From NCBI GenBank assembly GCA_977017645.1, contig OZ360220.1, positions 207,700,001 through 207,764,000 on the forward strand: 64,000 bases of DNA, read 5' to 3'. The stretch is from Torpedo marmorata. Lineage: Eukaryota. Below the pieces are notes generated by a model, which worked only from the letters and a program-made list of their open reading frames with translations, had not been told where the DNA came from and made no database searches. Position numbers and translations under genes: made by a program. Positions 20,741 through 64,000 of the stretch are shown in pieces (within the stretch, counting starts at the first letter, position 1; every line of letters begins with the position of its first letter).

Positions 20741-20995
20741 GGGGCGGCACGGTTGGCGCAACGCCTTTACAGCGCCAGCGATCGGGACTGGGGTTCGAAT
20801 CCCACGCTGTCTATAAGGAGTTTGTATGTTCTCCCCCTGTCTGCGTGGATTTTCCCTGGGGGCCCGGTTTCCTCCCACCATTCAAAATGTACCGGGGGTG
20901 TAGGTTAATTGGGTGTAAATTGGGCGGCACGGACTTGTGGGCCGAAATGGCCTGTTACCGTGCTGTATGTTTAAATTTAATTTAAAATTTAAATT
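20741..20995 (+). mobile_element. tRNA-derived V-SINE (HE1-like)
   Basis: B box GGTTCGAATCCC and V-core GGAGTTTGTATGTTCTCCCC...GGTTTCCTCCCAC. Similar copies at 48755 and 55994. Confidence 0.85.
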
Positions 20996-49001: not shown

Positions 49002-52000
49002 TCTGATATCATAGTAGGATTTGTCTCCAGCCATGAAGGTGGTCATGACTATAGTGTCGCTGAAGTGTGGGAGATGAGGTTGTGCATTTGTGACTGAAGT
49101 TCCTCTTCTTCATTTGGTCCTGGGAGAGATTTCACAATCCAATCTTTATTTTTTCTTCTGCGGTGCACAAAAATACTTGAGAAACTCAGCAGGTCACACG
49201 TATTTTGTTCTTGAACTGATATGACAGCAGTTCTTCTCTGGCATTCTGTCTATTTCATTATTCATTCTGACATTTTATTGGTTCAACAGACAAACCACAG
49301 GACACAATGTTAAAGAAATCTCTGATGAGGGATAAATGACAAAAAATATCCGTTTCTTGCACTCTCTCTGAGACTCAATTCACTAGGATTTTCTAGACCA
49401 TTATTTCACTTATTTATGGAATCAACTTAAGTAGAATCATTCAGGCACTTGATAGTGATCAATATCCCTTTCACAGGGATGATGAAGACTCCGTCTATCA
49501 TTAGCGGCAAGCGCCAACATTCAAAACACGCTGGCTGTCCTTTTATTTTACTGGTTTGAAAATAACTTCTGCCATTACTTTCTCAGGATCTTTGTCCAAT
49601 GATTTCCAAAACTCTTTTCTTGGCACCTTATTTTGGGAACAAGAGAAACATTTTGCAGATGAAAATGCTCTGAAATAAGGATGGAAGACTGACAGAATCG
49701 GCTTCGATGTAGACAGAAACAGAGCTAATGATTTAAGTCAATGATCAGAACAGCCTCACAAGGAGGCACCTAATAAGATAACACAGGTGGTTGTTTAGTG
49801 CATCATACCAATTTAACTTGATCCAAGGCACACGAAAAATGCAAACTCAAACGTTAGCAGCAACTAGGCAGTGCTCATTACATCATACTTTAGGTCAAAT
49901 TTCATGATGGGTTTACACAAGTTCAAACTAGTGTAGCTGGGTATGATGCTTATACAAATTGCTGATGATACCACTGTAGTCGGCTGTATAAAAAGGGGCG
50001 ATGAGTCAACATACAGGAGGGAGATTGAAAACTTGGCTGAATGGTGCACTAACAACAACCTCCTGGCCCACAGGAAAAAGAACGTCATGTTTTATGTGAC
50101 GTCGTGTATGTAACACTGATAATAAATTTGAACTTTGAACTTTAGTTGGTGTTCCTTGAGCCTCCCTGTGCACAATTTAAAGGGCACAAGCTTTTTCCTA
50201 TTGATATTAGAAGTTATTTCAGTTTCTCAGAGCTTGCTGTAAATCAGGACCAAGAAAAGACATTGAAATCTTTTGGTACAGGTCTGGATGCCTTTGGATG
50301 AGGGTAGGAGGAGGAAAGTGGCATTTACTTAGGACACAGGAAACCCTCCAGGTCAATCGTGAAGTAATCTGGAGAAGGTCACATGAAGAACTGAGAATAT
50401 GGACAACATGCAGGTAGATAAATAACCTCACACAAGTGGTCAAGAAAACTGAAGATATAATATAAATCATGTCACCCTATAGCCTCAAACATAGCTTTAA
50501 AGTATATATCTTTTATTTATTTTCTCAGTCTTTATTAAGTCTTTAGAGATGGGAAGAGGAAAATGACATCAGTTTGCAAAGCATTATCCAGAAAAAGTGG
50601 TGAAAGCAGATCATGGAATTGTAAATGCAGAGGGAATACCAAGTGTCTAAGTATGAGTGGTATAAAGGAGTAATATTTGCATGTGTAAGGACAGTGATTG
50701 TATGTGCTCATTGTCTTCAGTTAATTAACAGCTAGTCCTAGAGGGACTGCAGGATTAAGACATTGGGAGGAGGGGGGAGGGGGGCAGAAGAAAAGCAGGA
50801 TGATAAATTAGAGATAGGGAGTTTCTCCCACTGGAATGCCCTTGGCAGTGAGTAATCAGAATTAAGACTGCAGAAGCTCCCTGTTTTAACAAATGTAGCA
50901 GAGACCACCAAGGCCCCCTGGAAAGAAAAGTAGATGTGGAGACAAGCAGTCTATTTATGATACAGCATATAATCATTGCAGGAGACACATTCCATTTGAG
51001 GCTCTGGTGGAGGCAGAGACCAAAATGCAATGACATCAGCAACCACAGATCACAAGCTACTTTCTACCAGACTGGCTCTTTGCTGATAAGAGGATGTCTA
51101 GATTAGGTGAAGATGCTCAACCATGTATCTGACTATGTGACAAAATGCCACACTCTGTACAAGCAGAGGGAATTCATTAAGATGCCAGTGTGAAATCAAT
51201 CAAAATAAATGCACTTACGCTTGAGTCGAAAAGTGCGAGTAATTATTTTCTCCACTACAGTAACTTTCAAAAGTGAAATGGATAGATAATTTACAGAGAA
51301 AGTGTCCAAGACCAGAGAGAAAAAGCAGGGACTAAGTATTTTTAGAGAAAAAAAATATCCAGTGACAACACATTGGGGTGATTCAGCCATAAGAAGCTTT
51401 CCACCGACATTTACTACAAACCCTCCAACTCCCACAACTATCTGGACTACACATCCTCACACCCTGTCCCCTGCAAGGACTCCATCCCCTTCTCTCAATT
51501 TCTCCGCCTCCGCCGCATCTGTTCCCAAGATGAGGTGTTCCACTCCAGATCTTCTGAAATGTCTGCCTTTTTCCACAAACGTGGCTTCCCCTCCACCACC
51601 ATCAACTCAGCCCTCACCCGCATCTCCTGCTCATCTGCCCTGGCCCCCTCTGCCCCCAGACGCAACAAACATAGAATCCCCCTCATCCTCACCTACCACC
51701 CCCGGAATTTCCGGCACTTACTACAGGATCCCACCACCAGACACATTTTTCCTTCTCCTCCCCTCTCGGCCTTCCGTAGGGACCGCTCCCTCCGCGATTC
51801 ACTCGTGCACTCATCCCTCCCCACCCATCGCACCCCCGGAACCTTCGGCTGTGCCCGCAGGAGGTGCAACACCTGCGCCCACACCTCCCCCCTCACCACG
51901 GTCCAGGGCCCCAAACAGGCCTTCCAAGTGAAACTACACTTCACTTGTACATCCAGAGAACTTATTTACTGCATCCGGTGCTCCCGTTGTGGCTTTCTAT

Positions 52001-52163
52001 ACATTGGAGAGACCGGTCGTAGATTGGGAGACTGCTTTGCTAAGCACCTCCTCTCCGTCCGCAACAACAGCGACCTCCCAGTAGCCAACCAGTTCAATTC
52101 TGGGTCACACTCCCACACTCACATGTCTGTCCATGGCATCATGTACTATCCCACCCAGACTAC

Positions 52164-52411
52164 TGTGGTAAACCACTTTGTTTGTATTGTGGCCTGAGGC
52201 AAGTATGACCATGACCTGTCTGTCTGTCCCGGTGACCCCTCCCCCTTTACATGGAATAAAGGCATTGAGCCAGCTACTCCTCCCCCAGTTCCGGGACAAT
52301 CCAGCAGGGATCATCAGGTCAAGGTGTATTAGCCCTGGCTTTGATTCTGGTAATAAAAGCCTATTAATTCCTGCACTTCTAGACTCGCGTCTGTCATTGA
52401 TAGGTATATCA
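52164..52411 (+). mobile_element. Solo LTR related to the Gypsy at 15367-19902
   Basis: Starts TGTGGTAAACCACT and ends TTGATAGGTATATCA. Flanks ACTAC/ATTAC. Absent from the homologous Penelope at ~54765. Confidence 0.88.
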
Positions 52412-52688
52412 ATTACCCGCAAATTGGAGGAACAACATCTCATATTCCGTCTCGGCACTCTCCAGCCAGATGGCATTAACATTGACTTTTCTGCTTTCCA
52501 CTAAACCTGCTTGTCATTCCCTTCCCCTCCCCCCTCACCTGTCCTTCCTGTTTTTCTCCAGCTACCTAGCCATCCCTCCTCCCCCTCTTTGCTGCTGTCC
52601 CCTCCCTCCTTTCTCCACCTATCATCTCCTGCCTTTGCCATCCCCCTTCCCCCCTCACTCCTTTGTTCGGATGCCTGCTGGCATTTTA

Positions 52689-52730
52689 TCATACTTTGAT
52701 GAAGGGCTCAAGCCCGAAACGTCGGTTATG
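52689..52730 (+). ncRNA. Minimal hammerhead ribozyme motif (Penelope pLTR)
   Basis: TTGATGA-a-GGGC-tcaa-GCCC-GAAAC-GTC with flanks CATAC / GTTATG. Confidence 0.62.
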
Positions 52731-53111
52731 TATTTCTACCTTTGCTACATAAAAAACACTGTTTGACCTGCTGAGTTTCTCCAGCATTTGTGTTTTTTAC
52801 TTCAACCACGGTGTCTACAGATTTTCGTGTTTTACTTCATAAGAATCTAGTCATTGACTCCTTCAAAAGTTTTGGTAAAGATGTCATTAAGCTCCAGGTT
52901 AATTTGATGGGTACAAGATAGTTGTCAGATAAGAAGTGCTTAAACAGCAATAATAAAGAAATCAGGGAGCAATGGATGTTAAACATGCACTTGCTCTTAC
53001 ATTAAGGAACAGGATAAGAAGCAGAATCATGAATAGGCCAATCAGTCCTTCCAGCCTCCTCTGCTATCTAAGATCTTGGCTGATTTTTTTGTCTAAAACA
53101 TTCCTTTAATA

Positions 53112-53330: not shown

Positions 53331-54387
53331 TATTCAGGAATCCATCAATTTTTGTTGAAGAAGATGAAGAGAAGAAAATCAATTCCAGCAGGACCAGGAT
53401 TAACAGGCACAGATCCAGCACTTATTTTTAAATGCCTCATGATTTCTAGTTCTGCAATTCTAACTCAGAATATGGAATATAGTCTGTAGTGTCAGCCAGT
53501 CACTTCTGAGTATTTTGACCAATTTGGCATTCTTGTGCTGTTCAAAACTCTGTTATGCACAAAATATTTTCCCAAATCAATAGACTAATGAGTTTATCCA
53601 TTTTCTTACAAACTCTTCAAATGCTACCATATGGAGTTATTTAATAATAACAATTCATACATGAAAAGAAAATACTGCAGAAATACACAATGACTTTTTT
53701 ATTTATTGATGAACAAATTGCAGAAATTGTACATGCCACATTGAAATTATTATGTAAAAAAGATTTATCACCTCAATTATGAAAGAAAATAAAGCAGTCA
53801 GAAAAACCTTGAAATTATTTAATTATTTTTGCAACAAGGACACCCATACTGAAATTAAATTTATTAGCACGGTACAATGGATACTCTTTGCCAATATACA
53901 ATTCTTTGTAAATTAGTATGTGACATTGATGTAGAATTTTTATAAAAATCATCCTTTGTGAATAACAAATTGTAGCAATCAGCACAGGGTTGTTAAAGCA
54001 ATAAGTAATAAATGTCTTGAATGGCACTGACATTACTATGTAACATTTTATGATGCATTTTAATCATCATATCTCCCAAGGGTAACCTCCCATTTTCTTG
54101 TTAATTGTCCATTTTCATTCTATAGCAATAATCAGTGATTAGGAATTCAATTCCCTGTCTCAAGGCCTGAGGACAGAATTGACGTTGATGTTTCAGTGGA
54201 GTAGAGCAGGGGTGGTGAATGCTGGATGTGTCAGCTTTGACATGAGACATAAAAACATGGTTAATATCTGAATGCTCTTACATCAGTGCTGAAGATCCCA
54301 AATGTCTGGTCAATATTTATCTTGTCATGGTATCTAAAATGTATCAACATTGATGTTCTCATGACATACAGTAAAAGGGGGCATTTA

Positions 54388-55003
54388 AAAAACACAAATG
54401 CTGGAGAAACTCAGCAGGTCAAACAGTGTCTTTTATGTAGCAAAGGTAGAAATACATAACCGACGTTTCGGGCTTGAGCCCTTCATCAAAGTATGAGAAA
54501 ATGCCGGCAGGCGTCTGAACAAAAGAGTAAGGGGGGAGGGGTGGCAAAGGCAGGAGATGATAGGTGGAGAAAGGAGGGAGGGGACAGCAGCAAAGAGGGG
54601 GAGGAGGGATAGCTGGGTGGGTGGAGAAAAACAGGAAGGACAGGTGAGGGGGAGGGGAAGGAAACGACAAGCAGGTTTAGTGGAAAGCAGAAAAGTCAAT
54701 GTTAATGCCATCTGGCTGGAGAGTGCCGAGACAGAATATGAGATGTTGTTCCTCCAATTTGCGGGTAGTCTGGGTGGGATAGTACATAAGGCCATGGACA
54801 GACATGTGAGTGTGGGAGTGTGACCCGGAATTGAAATGGTTGGCTACTGGGAGGTAGGTCACTGTTGTTGCGGACGGAGAGGAGGTGCTCAGCAAAGCGA
54901 TCTCCCAATCTACGACCGGTCTCTCCGATGTAGAGAAAGCCACAAAGGGAGCACCGGATGCAGTAAATAAGTTCTCTGGATTTACAAGTGAAGTGTAGTT
55001 TTT
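54388..55003 (-). mobile_element. Penelope-like element 3' part (GIY-YIG and pLTR)
   Basis: LIYCIRCSLCGFLYIGETGRRLGDRFAEH; near-identical to ~51930-52790 in inverted orientation. Confidence 0.9.
54455..54496 (-). ncRNA. Minimal hammerhead ribozyme motif
   Basis: Core identical to 52689-52730 on the minus strand. Confidence 0.6.
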
Positions 55004-55993
55004 GATCTCTCAAGCTTATGCCAACTCCTAAAGCAATCGTCTCAGTAATATTCCCTCTTTTATTTCCCTGTAATGCATTCTTTATCACATGCTCATCAAT
55101 CAGCAACCCAGCAGTGCGTGATTCTCCCACCACCCAGCTAAACCAGGGATGATTGACAGTTGTTAATTAACCGACCAACCGGAATGCTGTTGGGTAGTGG
55201 AAGAAAACCAGAGAATCTAAAGAAAACCCACATAGTTATGGAGAGAACTGGCAAACCACAGCATTTCCAGGTCAGGATTGATCTTGGGTCACTGGAATTA
55301 TGAGGAGGCAGCACCATCTACTGCAATGTTGACATCCTGTGCCATTTGCATTGCATTGTTGTTGGTGAATCATCTGTGCTCAAATTCACTTCTGCATTTT
55401 ATATCTCTATCTAGATAGTTGCAAAGCACTTTGGGATATTGTGTGTAAAGCACAAAATCAATGAATTAATAAAGAACCAAGACAGTCCTTAAGAAAGTGA
55501 AGGGCCACAGAGGACAAAAAACATCTCTGATTTGGTTCTGATTTGAGAGTGCTGCAAAGGGGAGCCAGGTAATGGAAAAAATACGACGTTGATAAGGAGT
55601 CTGATTCTCGTCTAGTCTGAGATGGGAGCAAGTTGGGGATGTGTGATCAGGTGTTACTTTGCTGTTGACTGCCATCATCACTGATAAGACGGGATTGGAA
55701 AGCTTGCACCACTCCTCCAGTACTCTACAGCAACATCAACCTCAATCTTGACCTCAACTCTTAAAAAAGAGAATTGAATCTCTCATCCCTGAGTGAAATG
55801 CACTTTCTGCTCAATAACTCCCAAGTTCATCTAAAAAAAAAAATAGCAACACAAGACTTCTTTTTACAAACCAGTTGTTGAAAGTGTTTCAGCATGTAGT
55901 GACTTCAATCCAATAAATAGTCACTTGGAGGCTAGGTGAGACACTTGTTCTTGACGCGTTTCAATTAATTTACTAACAAAGTCCAATTTGTTC

Positions 55994-56250
55994 TTTTTAA
56001 AAAAATTTAGACATACAGCACGGTAACAAGCCATTTCGGCCCACGAGTCCGTGCCGCACAATTTACACCCAATTACCCTACACCCCCGGTACATTTCGAA
56101 TGGTGGGAGGAAACCGGAGCCCCCGGGGAAAACCCACGCAGACGCGGAGAGAACATACAAACTCCTTACAGACAGCGCGGGATTCGAACCCCGGTCCCGA
56201 TCGCTGGCGCTGTAAAGGCGTTGCGCTATCGCTATGCCAACCGCTACGCC
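55994..56250 (-). mobile_element. V-SINE inserted in the 3' LTR of the BEL element
   Basis: Absent at the equivalent position (~60320) of the other LTR. Confidence 0.9.
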
Positions 56251-56947
56251 AAATGTTTATTAACACATGATGACTTGTAGCAATCTTCAATAACTTAAAT
56301 ACCTTCTTTAACGAAATGAAGACAATCCTTGATAACGATGCTTAATAACGATTCTTAATAACGTTCCTTTAAAACAATTATTTATAACTTCCTTTAAAAT
56401 GGTCAATGAAAACTATGACGATCTCACTCACCCTCCTCTAGGTCGCCATATTCTATATATATATATTTCTTCCCCGATTCGCGCGCATGCTCCAACACGC
56501 ATACTCCACCACGCATGCTCCAGCCACTTCCCCACTGCGCATGCGCCCGTCAACACACCTGCGCATGCGCAGAATGGTCAATAGGCCCAGCATGGCCTGC
56601 CAAACTCCGCGACTCCTTCGACACCCGCTGGATACATCGGAACGGCACGATAAAGGTAGGAACCGAGCCTATGGCTCTTACACTGGCCCCTAATTATTAT
56701 AACGAGACGCAATGTCTTAAATAATAATTACACTATCAATTACAAATAACAATAACTATATAACATTCAAACAATATACAAATCTTCTTTCTTCATAAGA
56801 CCAGAGTTTACCATAACTCTGGATCAATAAAGTCTGTAACCTGTATAGTATACAAAACAACAAATACAGTCAGTTTGTACTTATCAAAATTCTTTTATCT
56901 CCAGAATCTTTGAGTTAGAACGTCGACCAGTGAACCTCAAATCTTCC

Positions 56948-57703
56948 TCAGACAAAATAGATAGTTTTTCTTTTGAATTTAACACAAGGTACGTCTTCAG
57001 CATGTTGTTTCGCTTTATACCTTTCTTCAACATTCCACTTCTCATATGAAGAATTTAAACTCTTAGAACCAGAATTTGAATATATATCTGATCCTCTCGA
57101 TTTTAATAAACGAGTCTCTTTAATCTTTCCTGCATTCAATTCTTTCAATAAGAAAGTACTTCTCTCATTATCTTCCGAGAAATTAATAACTTGATCTGAA
57201 GTGAAAATATCATGTGATACATTGGTACTTCTATTGTCAACCTTGCTGTGGTAAACTTGAAAATTTCGAATTTCTTCATCTTTCCTGTTACATTGCTGCA
57301 ATGCAGTACCACTTTCTTTCTGCATTGTTAATAGCTGAACCTTCAATATACATTCTTGATTGTTTTCTATATTCAGCTGTTTTGTGTTATTAACCAATAA
57401 CTTGTTCTCTTTCAAAAGATGAATCTCTTCCTCCAACCTTTTACATCTTGATAATGCTGAATCTCTTTCCTCAATAACTGTATTTATTTCTTCAGCAGTT
57501 ATTCTTTTCTTCCGCTTTCTGACTTTGCAAATTTTATTTACAATTAAATCTTTCTGATTACTGTTTTCATGATTATCCAATATTTCCAATTCCTTTTTCA
57601 ACATTTTGTTCTCTGAATTCAATTGCATTAAATTATCATTCACATTCTTCTTTATTGCATCAGCACAATTTTCTGCTTTCATCAGTTTTACATCACGGTG
57701 CAA
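56948..57703 (-). CDS. Coiled-coil ORF containing a captured MIPOL1-like segment
   Basis: RITAEEINTVIEERDSALSRCKRLEEE...ENNQECILKVQLLTMQ...EEIRNFQVYHS resembles vertebrate MIPOL1 as I recall it (RITAEEMSALIEERDAALSKCKRLEQE...ENNQERALKAKLLSMQ...EEIQTLRVYYS). Confidence 0.78.
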   Translation of the reverse strand: MHRDVKLMKAENCADAIKKNVNDNLMQLNSENKMLKKELEILDNHENSNQKDLIVNKICKVRKRKKRITAEEINTVIEERDSALSRCKRLEEEIHLLKENKLLVNNTKQLNIENNQECILKVQLLTMQKESGTALQQCNRKDEEIRNFQVYHSKVDNRSTNVSHDIFTSDQVINFSEDNERSTFLLKELNAGKIKETRLLKSRGSDIYSNSGSKSLNSSYEKWNVEERYKAKQHAEDVPCVKFKRKTIYFV

Positions 57704-57959
57704 GATTTCTTCATTGACCTTATCTGCTGTAACCTCTGAACTACAAAATCTACTTTCAAATTTATTCTGTCATTTGTTTTATTCCTGCCTCTGATTCAAT
57801 TTCACAGGAATAATCACTAGTATTATTTGCAACATCGTCTAATACTTCATTTTCATCCATTTCTGATGAAAATAATTCCTTCAATGTTGTTTTAAATGCT
57901 TTTGATTTATTTTCACATTGATCTGTTTTCTTTTCTTCAAAAGTGACTTTCTTATTTAC

Positions 57960-59761
57960 AATCTTATGCTGTTCCCTTAACTCATCAAATTTCACAACCG
58001 AAATCCTGTTAACATTTATCGCTAACTGTTCCTGAGCAATATCATTATTTCTTTCCAATGGTCCATTAATTGTCCAACCAAGCTTGGTTCTAACAGCATA
58101 ACGTCCATTCCCTCTACTCCGTATTACTTCTAGTGGTTTCAAAACCTTTGGTACATCTGAACCAATCAGCATTTTTATTTCAGAATTAACCACAGATAAG
58201 ACAAATGAGTGTATAGACTTGGAAGATCATGAATTTTTTTGCCATGCAATCCAGCAAACTCTAAGCCTGAAACAATGCTGGTTTCAATGACCTCTTCTTG
58301 TCCCATGGTTTTCAACATAATCTTCATCTTTTTTCCTTGAATATTAAGTTTGTTCATTAGTCCCACCGTGCAAAAAGATGCAGTGCTGCCTGGGTCGAGA
58401 AATGCATATGTATGTACTGTTGCATCCCCTTTCTTGGTCTTTACTTGTACAGGCACTATTGAAAGTTTGCAGTTATCCACACCGGCCCTGGTAAGACCAC
58501 TTGTCTGAACCGAGGTTATAACATTGTTTTCTGATGTTTGCTTTGTTTCTGTTTGCTCATTTTTCAATTCCTTGTTTCTTTGATGGATATGCAACATTCT
58601 AGGATGCTTCAAATCGCATATGTTACAGTTAATTCACTTCTCGCAGTTTTTACTGAGGTGCCCTTTACACAGACAGCTAAAATATACTCCATTTTCCTTT
58701 AAGAAAGCGATCTTCTCATTATGTTCCTTCTTTTCCAACTGTAAACACATTTCCAAAGCATGTCCACCTTTACAGAACAAACAACTCTTCTCATTAGGCA
58801 AACTTTCCTTTTCCTTATTTACTTTATCTTTTTCTTTATTTATAACTGACACATTAGCAGCAAAACTACTTTTCAATTTCAGACTAGGCTGTGAGTTAGA
58901 CCTCTTTATAACTTTGTTCCCCATTGAATGGTACATGTGACTTGATAACACCACGCTCTTGGAGGCTTTGTCCTTGAATTTGCATATCTTGTACCCGTGG
59001 AACTAAAATATCTACCCTTTTGGTTGATTTCTTTTTTGTGGCTCATTTTTAAAATATAACTTCTTATCATCATACACTTTAAATAATTTACTCCGAGCAC
59101 CAGATACCATTGAGCCTTCTAGTACCTTTATTCTGGCCCTGGCAATAGCAATGTTTTCTTCCAGCTCCTGCTGCTCCTTTCTCCTTCTTAGCTGCTCTTC
59201 CTGTTCTTCTAAAAAATGTTTATCCTTAAGAGAATCTTGTCGTGCAAGAAGAGTAGACAAGTCAACTTCAATCTTTGTACGTGACGATGCAAAACTTGAA
59301 GTACGAGAAACTCTGGATCTTGAACCAGAAGAACTTTGTTTGCTTCTCCTGCTTTCAACATTTGAGACACTGTCACATACTTGTATTTTGTCCTGCAGGT
59401 CAGATGTTGTCTTCTTACTTGCCTCTTTCTCTGGCTCGAATTGTACATCCTTTGCATCTTCATCCTCTTTGTCTTCATCACCATTTGGTGACACATTTTC
59501 AGCCATTTCCACGTTGCTGTCTTCATGTTCAGTCGTAGTTCTTTGCAATAAGTTTTCAATGTTTTCATTCCCATCAACCGAAGCTGCCGCCTCTTCTACC
59601 TTTGCCAGCTTCAGTCTTTCAATGAGAATATTTTTATTTCCACTTGTATCTAGTTTCCGTCACTTCAATTCTTCTTTGAGATTCACAACCTTCATGTCTT
59701 CAATACGTTGTTCCTCAACAGCAACATCAGCGGCTTCTGCGTCAACTGCTGCTGCGGCCAT
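57960..59761 (-). pseudogene. Disrupted BEL gag-protease with an N-terminal SAP domain
   Basis: MAAAAVDAE...IEDMKVVNLKEELK*RKLDTSGNKNILIERLK, then DSVSNV-Ser-rich and KHFLEEQEEQLRRRKEQ Gag motifs, zinc knuckles and protease. Confidence 0.82.
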
Positions 59762-61649
59762 TTCACTCGTCTTGTTCCACCGTCCTTCGAGCATGCACAA
59801 CACTAGCCAAATCAACAGTCCCCAATGGACTAGCAGCAGCAAATCCAAACTGTGTTCAAACTTGCCAAAGATACACAGAAGGAGTCCACAGACTTATGCC
59901 TACCACTTCAGATGACTGTAATGTGCTGCTATTAACAAACGAGTTTCCACCGCAGCATCCGTCAATAATATCGCTGATTTTCAAGAAATGGTTTCTCCAA
60001 CGTATTTATAGAACACTTTATTATAAGATTAGAAGCTCTAAATCCCTCTCTGGCTGTTATTCATGGCAGATGAATGTGGATTAAAAACTGCCCCTAACTT
60101 GAGGCATTTCCAAAATGGCCATCATTTTATTTTAAATATCAGTCCAAAGCACAGAGAGCTCATCCTATCTTCTTTCCTTCAATTTTATGTTCCAAACAAT
60201 AAGTTTTCATTGACTAAAATGTAGTGACTTCAATCCAATAAATAATCACTTGGAGACTAGGTGAGACTCTTGTTCTTGACGCGTTTCAATTAATTTACTA
60301 ACAAAGTCCAATATGTTCAAAATGTTTATTAACACATGATGACTTGCAGCAATCTTCAATAACTTAAATATCTTCTTTAACAAAATGTAAACAATCCTTG
60401 ATAACGATGCTTAATAACGATTCTTAATAACGTTCCTTTAAAACGATTCTTCATAACTTCCTTTAAAACGATCAATGAAAACTATGACGATCTCACACCC
60501 TCCTCTAGGTCGCCATATTCTATATATGTATTTCTACCCCGATTCGCGCTCATGCTCCACCATGCATGCTCCAGCCACTTCCCCACTGCGCATGCGCCCT
60601 TTGACACTCCCGCGCATGCGCAGAATAGTCAATAGGCTCATCACGGCCTACCAAACTCCGCGACTCCTCCGACACCCGCTGGATACATCAGAACGGCGCA
60701 ATAAAGGTAGGAACTGAGCCTATGGCTCTTACACAGCATTTTGAATGAAATTAGTCAGTCACCCTCAAGGACATTTCCTTAATCATAACAATAATGAATT
60801 TAGGCATATCATTTGCTTTTAACACAAATTAACTTGAAAGATAGCTTCTGGTTTGGAGAAGACAGTGAAGGAATATTTGACGTTAAAATATAAATTCCCA
60901 ATTTTGAAAATGATGTGTAGTAATGAAGCTTCCTGTCCATGATTTGCAAAGATTTAGGCATGTTTTGTTCTTGTCCTCCACATTAATTGCACGGAAGAAT
61001 GAACAAGACGCATACACCAAATTGCAGTTAAGTGAAGTCATTAAAAGTAAATCTTCATTTTCATTTCTTTAAAGTTTGCATATTCAACAATTTAACAACG
61101 AAAGACCTATTCAGCCTTCATTGCTTAAAATAATATGATGGTTGTTACAAATTACTTTGTATTCATTGCTTCTTTTTCTAATGTCTGTGTATATTTGCTG
61201 TTATAATGGGATTACAAGTTTAGACTGTCAGTAGTTTTATCAGCTAATTAATATTACTGGAAAATACATTTTATAGTGATAAAGCAGTTAATGTGTTTTC
61301 AAACAGTTACTTAACAATCTTATTAAGTCTTTAAATTTACAAATGGCTTTCTAACCTAAATTAAGGTGGAACCTTGTTCCTGCTCCTCCCAGTCTAATGT
61401 CCTTTCAATTTGTTGGTCTGGATGTTCAGAATCAGGATCACTAATTTTTGTCATGATCATGTCAAGAAATGTATTGTTTTGCAGCAGCATTACAGGTGGA
61501 AATATTGCTATAAATTACGATTTTAAAAAATTAGTGCAATAGAAGAGAAAGTGAGGTTCTGTCTGTGGTTCATTGTCCATTGAGAAATCTGATGGCAGAG
61601 GGAAAGAAGTGGTTATTGTACTGTTGGGTGTTTGTCTTCAGGCTCCTGT

Positions 61650-62440
61650 ACCTCAGAAAAGAGGTGGAAAATCTTGTGATGTGGTCTGAGAATAAGAACC
61701 TGAGTCTCAACATGGACAAGACAAAAGAGATGAGGTGGACTTTAGGAGGACCAGGAACGACTAGCCTCCACTACACATTAATAATTCACTGGTTCCTTGG
61801 AGTCCACTGAACAAGTGACCTCTCCTGGACACACAACATCTCCTCATTTGTCAAGAAGGCGCAACAGCATCTGCACTCCCAAAGAAGACTGAAGCGGGCA
61901 AGGCTACCAGCCACCATCATGTCAACCTTCTAAGTGAGCTCTATCGAGAGCATCCTGGCTGGCTGCATCACAGTGTGGAACGGTTGCTGTAGAGAAGTGA
62001 ATCGGAGGTCAATCCACTGGACTATAAGAGTGGGAGAAAGGATCATTGGGGCCTCCCTCAACCCCATCGATGATCAACCACAATCATTGTCTAACTGAGG
62101 ACCTCTGCCACAGACATGTTTCACCTACTCCTGTCGAGAAAGAGATACAGGAGTATCAGAGCCAGTACCACCAGGCTGAGAAACAGCTTTTTTCCAAGGG
62201 CTGTGGGAATGTGGAACAACTAAATGAACTGCTCACACCAACCATCTGAGACTCTATTATTTATTAAACAATATCTATTTATTTTTATATATGTATATTT
62301 GTCCTGCATATGTATTGCTTGTCTGTATGTGTGTTACGTCTGGTTCTGTGTTTGCATGTTTTGCACTGAGGACCAGAGATCACTGATTTGTCGTGTTGTG
62401 CTTGTGCAATCAGATGATAAACAAACTTGGACTTGAACTC
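61650..62440 (+). mobile_element. Degenerate Rex1/Babar-like LINE 3' fragment
   Basis: NLSLNMDKTKEM, KKAQQHLH, IESILAGCITVW, and an (AACTTG)-like tail. Confidence 0.7.
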
Positions 62441-63166
62441 CTTTCTGATTGTAGCAGTGTGAAGACATGGCCTGGGTGGTGAGTGTCCTTGAGGATAGAG
62501 GCTGCTTTCTTGAGATTCCGCCTCTTATAGATGTTTTTAATGGAGTGAAGACTGAATCCCATGATGGTGCCAAGTTCACAACTCTCTGAAGTTTTTTTCC
62601 TGTCCTGTGCATTAGAATTTCCATACCAGACATGCAACCAGACAGAATGCTCTCCATGGTATACCTGTAGAAATTTGCAAGAGTCTTTGGTGACATACCA
62701 AATCTCCTCAGACTCCTCACGATGTATAGATGCTGGCGAGCCTTCTTTATGATTGGATTGACATAGAGGTTTGTTGACCAGTACTGATGGTATGATGGTG
62801 TTGAAAGCTGAGCTGTAGTCGATGAAAAGTTGACAGATGTACATGTTACATCCAGAGCTGAGTGGAGAGCTAGTGAGATTGCATTTGCTGTGGAGCTATT
62901 GTGGCAGTAGGTGAATTGCAGTGGGTCCAGATCTTTACTTTGGTACATGTTAAATTTGGCCATGACCAACCTCTCAAAACATTTCATCACAGTAGATGTG
63001 AGTGCTACTGGGCAATAGTCATTGACGCAGCTCACTCTGCTCTTCTTGGGCACCGGTATGATGGATGCCCTTTTGAAGCAGGTGTGAACCTCCAGCTGCA
63101 GCAGTGAGAGATTGAAAATGTCCGTGAACACTCTGACTAGTTTGTTGGCACATATTCTCAGTGCCC
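62441..63166 (-). mobile_element. Rex1/Babar LINE fragment with internal deletions
   Basis: [32 protein letters not shown]. Confidence 0.82.
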
Positions 63167-64000
63167 TGTGTTGTGTTCAAGATTAGGTTCGATGGGTTCA
63201 AAGAGAATCAAGGCTGGACACGTGTTATCAACAAACAGTGGGCATTTTTTATGCACAGGGGAATTCACAAAAGGGCACACATTCACACAGGCTAATGCAC
63301 ATTGTTCACAGGCATGGTATACTGAGAAACAAGGGTTTAACTTCTTCAGCACCCACCACCCACAGGCACGGTATACTGAGAAATGAGGGTTTAACTTCTT
63401 CAGCACCCACCACCCACAGGCACGGTATACCGCATAACTAACGAGTACATACACATGAACCTGATCTCCAGAGTCACCGCTAATCAGGATCTGGGATGGG
63501 CCCAATGAATTGGCCCTCCGGAGCTGCCCGTGGCTCGCAGCCTGGAGTTCATTAATGGTCACAACTAACAAACACATATACAGCGATAATACACAAATAA
63601 CTACACATCGGTGTGAATAAATCACAGCTAATTCGAGGGTAAAACACACAGTACCATCAACTCTCTCTATCTCTAGCAGGCACAGCACACTAACAAACAG
63701 TAAATTAATTACAACTAACAGATATATCAAATGAACCTGGTTTCCAGCATTGCCCATGGCTCGGGATCCAGTATGGGCCCATCGCATTTGGCCCTCCGGA
63801 GCTACCTGTGGCCTGTAGCCTGGAGTTCAGTGATGGTCTCCATGCAGCAGCAGCAAACAAAGAGAGAGAGAGCAGAGACTGCACATGCTCGGCTTTTTCA
63901 ATGCAAGACCCATCCACGTGACCTTTGAGGACCAATCGTGCATCAGCCTCACCTGTGGGCAGATCTAACCCTTAATTGGCGTCTTCCGACTAGGCTCCAG
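63167..64000. mobile_element. Probable LTR interrupting the Rex1 fragment and running off the window
   Basis: Abrupt switch from Rex1 sequence to TGTGTTGTG..., followed by internal tandem repeats. Confidence 0.5.
63307..63430. repeat. 54-bp tandem repeat (~2.3 units)
   Basis: CACAGGCACGGTATACTGAGAAA...CAGCACCCACCACC. Confidence 0.85.

Follow-up and report, generated by a model that had tools for sequence, protein, structure and literature searches.

Organization of the element

The window, i.e., the whole stretch of 64,000 nucleotides that was analysed, carries on its minus strand an LTR retrotransposon of the BEL/Pao type in which gag and protease are followed, in one frame, by intronless pieces of three host genes, BRCA1, MIPOL1 and ELOA (Elongin A), all enclosed between parts of the LTR element (Table 1). 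The initial annotation had described a BEL/Pao element with two LTRs and a CAGCA duplication, and this description holds: the LTR pair is identical at 480 of 514 aligned bases (93.4%), and the TG...CA ends together with the 5-bp CAGCA repeated on both sides are as known for BEL/Pao elements. The gag-protease region (57967..59761) is broken by stops, frameshifts and internal deletions and its own Pfam matches are weak, its Pao-type character being evident from 80-89% nucleotide identity to relatives with DUF1759, Peptidase_A17 and DUF5641. Pol, also reported as missing, is indeed absent, since about 3.35 kb with the reverse transcriptase (RT), RNase H and integrase of autonomous BEL/Pao elements are lacking in the window copy compared with an intact relative.

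Table 1. Features of the BEL/Pao element and its captured host sequences (window coordinates)
Feature	Position	Strand	Remarks
LTR retrotransposon, whole	55895-60733	minus	TG...CA LTRs; flanked by CAGCA
Target site duplication CAGCA, left, 5 bp	55890..55894	none	repeat of right-hand CAGCA
3' LTR	55895..56682	minus	contains an inserted dispersed repeat of ~256 nt, about 55993-56248
BEL 3' remnant (pol end and 3' untranslated region)	56685..56903	minus	85% identity with an autonomous copy
ELOA (Elongin A) cargo, two pieces, spliced host exons	56906..57127	minus	81-85% to host gene, G000:C41
5' part of MIPOL1 exon b, which in the host gene lies upstream of exon h and here follows it	57130..57245	minus	
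Back-splice-type junction	57245..57246	minus	exon h last base (57246) and exon b first base (57245)
MIPOL1 exons f (3' part), g, h, spliced	57246..57551	minus	86% to host gene, G000:C40
BRCA1 cargo, spliced host exons	57544..57971	minus	about 80% to host gene, G000:C61
BEL gag and protease region	57967..59761	minus	SAP domain, zinc knuckle, DPGS protease motif
5' LTR	60220..60733	minus	pairs with 55895..56682
Target site duplication CAGCA, right, 5 bp	60734..60738	none	repeat of left-hand CAGCA

A stop-free sense frame resembling MIPOL1 had been recognized in place of pol. In the window copy this frame extends over 56948-57769 on the minus strand and matches cartilaginous-fish MIPOL1 with an E value of 3e-36 (63% identity over 102 aa), by which a generic coiled-coil match was ruled out. 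All six matches of this search have an identical pair of Pfam labels, and the five that are named are MIPOL1; a Pfam profile search of the cargo returned no MIPOL1 family. The homologues found with the cargo region (332-1057 aa) were exclusively members of the MIPOL1 family, with no annotated chimera among them.

Other repeats lie in the neighbourhood. The dispersed repeat that splits the 3' LTR is SINE-like and has related copies near 20756-20987, 30886 and 48764, two inverted copies of one repeat, with a probable GIY-YIG-like, Penelope-type tail, occupy 51382-52840 and 54386-55001, and LINE-like fragments are found near 62334-63176.

Copy number and dispersal

The element belongs to a high-copy, pol-less BEL/Pao family with thousands of dispersed copies that have their own target duplications. 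A protein search of the same genome gave 37,212 first-look candidates, and all of the 150 places that were scored matched (the window and 149 others at 84-90%). A 21-nt junction motif was found in 5,265 exact genome matches, its reversed control in none. This motif recovers 21/30 and 6/11 known copies, but 1/4 in a contiguous host region, rates from which a total of roughly 7,500-21,000 copies can be estimated; four copies were counted in 630 kb, and at such a density the total could be higher still. Relative to host MIPOL1, host-like copies (about 95% identical) can be told from window-like ones (about 85%).

The search for other LTR-flanked copies with different duplications, suggested in the initial annotation, was successful. 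Candidate LTR pairs were present in 23 stretches and both ends could be scored in 12, giving eight exact 5-bp target duplications and three with one mismatch, all different, and one copy without. A further set of 40 copies was taken in order of position from the junction-motif matches, with 7.5 kb per copy; in this set an LTR pair (80-95% alike) lies within the 7.5 kb in 13 copies, a target duplication was seen at 3 of 7 scoreable ends, and the RT-RNase H-integrase core is absent in 40/40. The thousands of copies, the different duplications and the missing pol core bear out the earlier proposal that the element was mobilised in trans, and the switch points held in common are those of a retrocopy multiplied by secondary retroposition.

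Four cargo copies (L046, L052, L060, and L061) reside in introns of host MIPOL1 itself (G000:C40, about 64340500, 64408300, 64487600, and 64495200), three in the orientation of the gene and one opposite.

BRCA1 and ELOA sequences and probable points of template switching

The initial annotation considered MIPOL1 as the sole cargo and assigned the peptide AENCADAIKKN to its preceding segment. Neither view could be maintained, because BRCA1 and ELOA flank MIPOL1 and the peptide derives from BRCA1: the stretch before MIPOL1 matches skate BRCA1 (E 1e-55, residues about 163-388) and corresponds to four spliced host BRCA1 exons on C61, with 87-100% identity in host-like copies. This portion includes neither RING nor BRCT. 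At the start of the large exon of host BRCA1 (G000:C61:25488548) the host lacks 9 nt which are spanned by the element copies and by skate BRCA1, so that the cargo retains an older BRCA1 state.

The stretch after MIPOL1 was identified as Elongin A (E 6e-8 against PDB; E 7e-11 against Pfam in a longer copy), and it corresponds to five spliced, colinear host exons on C41 (88-99%). The Elongin A domain is lost in most copies. Apart from the C41 gene, the Elongin A family has another match with two exons, possibly a paralogue, at G000:C25:175318134-175337048.

BRCA1 and ELOA are both present in 36 of the 40 position-ordered copies, ELOA without BRCA1 in three and BRCA1 without ELOA in one. Among nine places found through ELOA, three are missing the exon h-exon b junction, two of them keeping part of exons b-c and one none. 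Common words of 2-6 nt, read by eye with no chance control, occur at four switch points, the one between BRCA1 and MIPOL1 measuring 2 nt. Where MIPOL1 passes into ELOA, the assignment of about 15 nt is ambiguous. All switch points fall inside exons, unlike the exon h-exon b junction.

One copy, L104 (G000:C59, about 59.656 Mb), resembles a relic of an earlier stage. It holds the longest MIPOL1 stretch, which runs through exon d into exon e (about 723/780 nt) and then passes into BEL sequence; it has the same BRCA1-MIPOL1 switch as other copies and is devoid of ELOA. The order of events read from this single copy suggests that ELOA was taken up last. The longer MIPOL1 form without ELOA was found in this one place, four further matches with 2 mismatches being near the control level of 2.

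A candidate helper family

The genome holds 6,618 candidates of a Pao RNase H family. Eight autonomous copies, picked for their long frames, encode 2018-2134 aa, have LTR pairs that are 97-100% alike and share their LTR start with the cargo family; the one that was domain-scanned contains DUF1759, RT, Peptidase_A17, integrase and DUF5641 in BEL order. The autonomous copies L134-L141, whose paired LTRs are up to 100% alike, mark recent activity of their BEL family and encode an N-terminal SAP domain that scores below the Pfam cut-off. Across gag-protease the window copy is 77-89% identical to the autonomous group. Thus, a related autonomous BEL family is the likely helper that spread the cargo family.

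In a protease tree the host-like copies stand apart, and the window-like ones form a grade around the younger autonomous elements, a clade to which one nested cargo copy is sister. The tree of the MIPOL1 cargo, in contrast, shows a clean division between host-like and window-like copies. These trees are midpoint-rooted, with bootstrap not settled and no clade test, and at this level their pattern fits repeated recombination with the helper lineage. At L107:1-5130 a cargo copy is nested in an older cargo copy, with a protease 93-94% identical to that of the young autonomous family; it may be the marker of a younger subfamily.

Selection and the reading frame

Selection was evaluated in the 40 position-ordered copies by comparing private variants, mostly post-insertion, with shared variants. 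The shared-versus-private ratio of N/S was 0.52 for gag-protease (p 8e-5), which is under purifying selection on the spreading lineages. The ratios of the cargo pieces were not significant (MIPOL1 1.05, BRCA1 0.70, ELOA 0.68). The open frame next to a broken gag, pointed out in the initial annotation for the window copy, is no sign of selection after insertion, as the frequency of private stops per codon is the same in the cargo (0.065) and in gag-protease (0.066), indicating that copies decay neutrally once inserted.

On the spreading lineages the picture is one of depleted stops and frameshifts. In the cargo, stops came to 28 per 333 replacements among the private variants and to 0 per 114 among the differences that separate the majority of copies from the host (p 5e-4), the latter including host-branch changes, which hold no stops (3/11 MIPOL1 residues, host-like copies); when all variants present in three or more copies were considered there were 4 per 220 (p 1e-3). 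Six common cargo deletions, chosen after looking and each present in at least 19/40 copies (24, 120, 3, 81, 195, and 3 nt), are all multiples of three, compared with 20/70 private indels that keep the frame (p 5e-4). A seventh common deletion is 111 nt long when aligned to the host, and mostly 110 when copy L120 serves as the reference. Shifts of frame are caused by a 290-nt deletion near the 3' end in 19/40 copies and by 2-nt deletions in 3-5 copies. Single natural frames cross the gap between pol and BRCA1, where the two scoring references have breaks of their own.

A protein-level explanation of these data would be that a Gag-protease-BRCA1-MIPOL1-ELOA fusion, or a coiled coil cleaved from it, aids particle assembly or engages host partners and so drove the success of the family. 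All capture junctions being in frame, the depletion of stops on spreading lineages, the persistence of the cargo on protease backbones of several ages and the BRCA1 and ELOA ratios of about 0.7 would agree with such a role. Against it, the MIPOL1 ratio lies at 1.05 and no cargo ratio differs significantly from 1, subfamilies have deleted 24 to 300 nt of cargo, in some cases across gene junctions, and the domains named above are either absent from the captured pieces (RING, BRCT) or lost in most copies (Elongin A), so that a working cargo protein is considered unlikely. The MIPOL1 ratio together with the depleted stops and frameshifts points to maintenance of the frame and not of the MIPOL1 protein; it seems that selection kept the open frame, while the values near 0.7 leave room for weak protein-level selection on BRCA1 and ELOA. 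Selection on an open frame can be separated here from selection on a protein.

Nonsense-mediated decay spares RNA whose translation ends near the 3' end, as it does in the full element. There is perhaps an even chance that a frame kept open almost to the 3' LTR lets the RNA escape this decay and supply gag-protease, the cargo residues being free filler.

Source of the MIPOL1 sequence

Host MIPOL1 lies on the minus strand of G000:C40, where the coding exons found were lettered a to i, with canonical AG/GT borders for exons b to i. Over 515 aa its product shares 91.7% of residues with a Narcine protein, the value for a Pristis protein being 79.7%, so that the genome is probably that of an electric ray. 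The cargo copies hold the ancestral MIPOL1 residue at three sites changed in the host and are without four Narcine-specific changes.

Exon mapping, as called for in the initial annotation, revealed spliced exons and also a second piece in reversed exon order. In a pairwise alignment of the window frame, residues 351-452 of P0001 precede residues 194-233, and the exon order in the element runs from f (3' part) through g to h and continues with b, c and the beginning of d. Exon h abuts exon b, last base to first base, with no gap at 41/41 loci (a count made without the host exon locus L032), and the junction is equally gapless in 40/40 longer stretches, 23 of which are new places, and in 4/4 copies within the host MIPOL1 introns. 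Contigs from four sequencing runs (organisms B, C, D, and E) cover 30/30 element bins, and among the contigs listed none spans this junction with 31 letters on each side. Of the earlier claim that spliced MIPOL1 was taken from RNA, the origin from spliced RNA stands, and a piece of plain linear mRNA does not, since the exons are back-spliced.

The host exons b-h add up to 780 nt and, read as a circle, form one stop-free frame. Exons a and i were found in 0/86 copies, and no genomic match was obtained for either linear junction, h|i or a|b, the search for a|b covering one tandem acceptor out of the two that exon b has. At this exon (G000:C40:64591883) the captured junction takes the upstream AG. 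A non-colinear junction at true exon ends combined with circle-internal exons only is the hallmark of circRNA-derived retrocopies, and the base-exact join together with the lack of exons outside b-h argues for a back-spliced circular RNA; a putative circular template is thus, with good probability, the simplest source of the MIPOL1 piece.

The same junction could be provided by a linear RNA with repeated exons, arising either by trans-splicing or from an ancestral tandem duplication of b-h that was later lost. An identical, base-exact junction would be expected from such an RNA as well, and no copy extends beyond one turn of the circle, L104 being the longest. However, the host exons b-h occur one time each in 400 kb, seven MIPOL1 proteins of the cartilaginous-fish type align colinearly with a single set of these exons, the outer exons a and i are missing from all 86 copies as stated above, and an exonic circular RNA is on record for mouse Mipol1 (PMC9888537). 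A linear repeated-exon source is consequently judged improbable. Far less credible is that two linear MIPOL1 mRNAs were joined at two exon ends by a chance template switch: the other switches in this family use no more than 2-6 nt of homology and both sites have 3 nt in common (AG|C), but both ends are base-exact on canonical splice sites while every other switch occurred within an exon. A LINE-made retrocopy dropped later into a single LTR element is the least tenable proposal and was ruled out by the copy number and common junctions, as thousands of copies have identical junctions, the cargo replaces pol instead of interrupting it and the switch points inspected show no poly(A) run.

Proposed mechanism and implications

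Based on the available evidence, it is proposed, with a probability of about 0.75, that a pol-less BEL/Pao family acquired an in-frame BRCA1-MIPOL1-ELOA cargo by template switching, with a putative circular RNA as one of the templates, and was spread by an autonomous BEL family. That the capture took place by template switching in the particle and was followed by spread in trans is almost certain. In a possible sequence of events, the reverse transcriptase would have jumped from BEL RNA to BRCA1 mRNA and from there, inside exon f, onto the 780-nt MIPOL1 circle, would have copied through the back-splice junction before returning to BEL, and would later have taken up ELOA. A circle that is stop-free and in frame would be an easy filler for keeping the frame open, and amplification in trans would have been carried out by the related autonomous family. 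The broader scenario, in which the MIPOL1 circle and the BRCA1 and ELOA pieces served as filler in place of pol and the family reached some 10^4 copies by pairing anew with successive helper lineages, appears somewhat more plausible than not.

If this model is correct, it would provide a mapped mechanism for the retrotransposition of circular RNA, and the thousands of BRCA1, MIPOL1 and ELOA fragments could feed small-RNA silencing of the respective host genes. The BRCA1 fragments are, in addition, a confounder for annotation and read mapping.

Relation to known systems

In acutely transforming retroviruses replication genes are replaced by spliced host sequence fused to gag, propagation depends on a helper and the cargo protein is selected. 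The BEL family described here differs in that the amino acids of its cargo drift and env is absent.

Capture of several genes by one LTR element and pseudogenes derived from circular RNA are each known; what appears to be new is their combination, at thousands of copies. No published account of a pol-less BRCA1-MIPOL1-ELOA BEL family was found, and one may be contained in subscription journals, repeat libraries or bioRxiv supplements. The closest precedent for multi-gene capture is maize Bs1, with three captured genes and 1-5 copies in Zea, as given in the accessible sections of PMC5131818. With more than 5,000 copies, a vertebrate host, a BEL/Pao backbone, gag-protease retained and one cargo back-spliced, the present family shows Bs1-type capture in a vertebrate, at thousands of copies in place of a handful. 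According to the same portion of that article, the Drosophila Pao element BATUMI with CG4799 plus CG11924 and the mosquito BEL18_AG are LTR-mediated retrocopies (PMC5131818). They resemble the family described here in the capture by BEL/Pao elements through template switching, which in those elements, and possibly here, took place at short common words, and, for the BATUMI type, in the presence of two parental genes in one element and the onward spread as non-autonomous elements; they are described there as young, low-copy loci, with no family-wide kept frame in those sections, and circular RNA is not mentioned in the main text.

MIPOL1 is among the top retrocopy parents in cartilaginous fishes, along with SUDS3, SDF2L1, SLU7 and ZNF276, in a preprint whose available text holds no link to LTR elements and attributes such lists to expression in the germline, followed by selective filtering (10.64898/2026.06.26.734816). 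A single captured cargo amplified by an LTR family could be an alternative source of the MIPOL1 count in that text, and the retrocopies of the other four genes may be similar LTR cargo.

With regard to circular RNA, the nearest parallel is found in the mouse circRFWD2-derived pseudogenes, of which 33 high-confidence copies are reported in the accessible part of PMC4897178, the authors calling the mechanism mysterious and leaving open the route by which circular RNA returns to genomes. In both cases a non-colinear exon junction marks the origin from a circle, a probable one in the present family, poly(A) is absent and the flanks are related to LTR sequence, being LTR-enriched in mouse (PMC4897178). 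As far as that part of the report describes the mouse copies, the present family differs in that a defined LTR element encloses the circle-type piece together with two further host cargoes, the switch points have been mapped, a candidate helper is present and the copies are at least 160 times more numerous. Owing to the circle-type junction in an LTR element, the mapped switch points and the candidate helper, the route of circular RNA back into genomes becomes testable.
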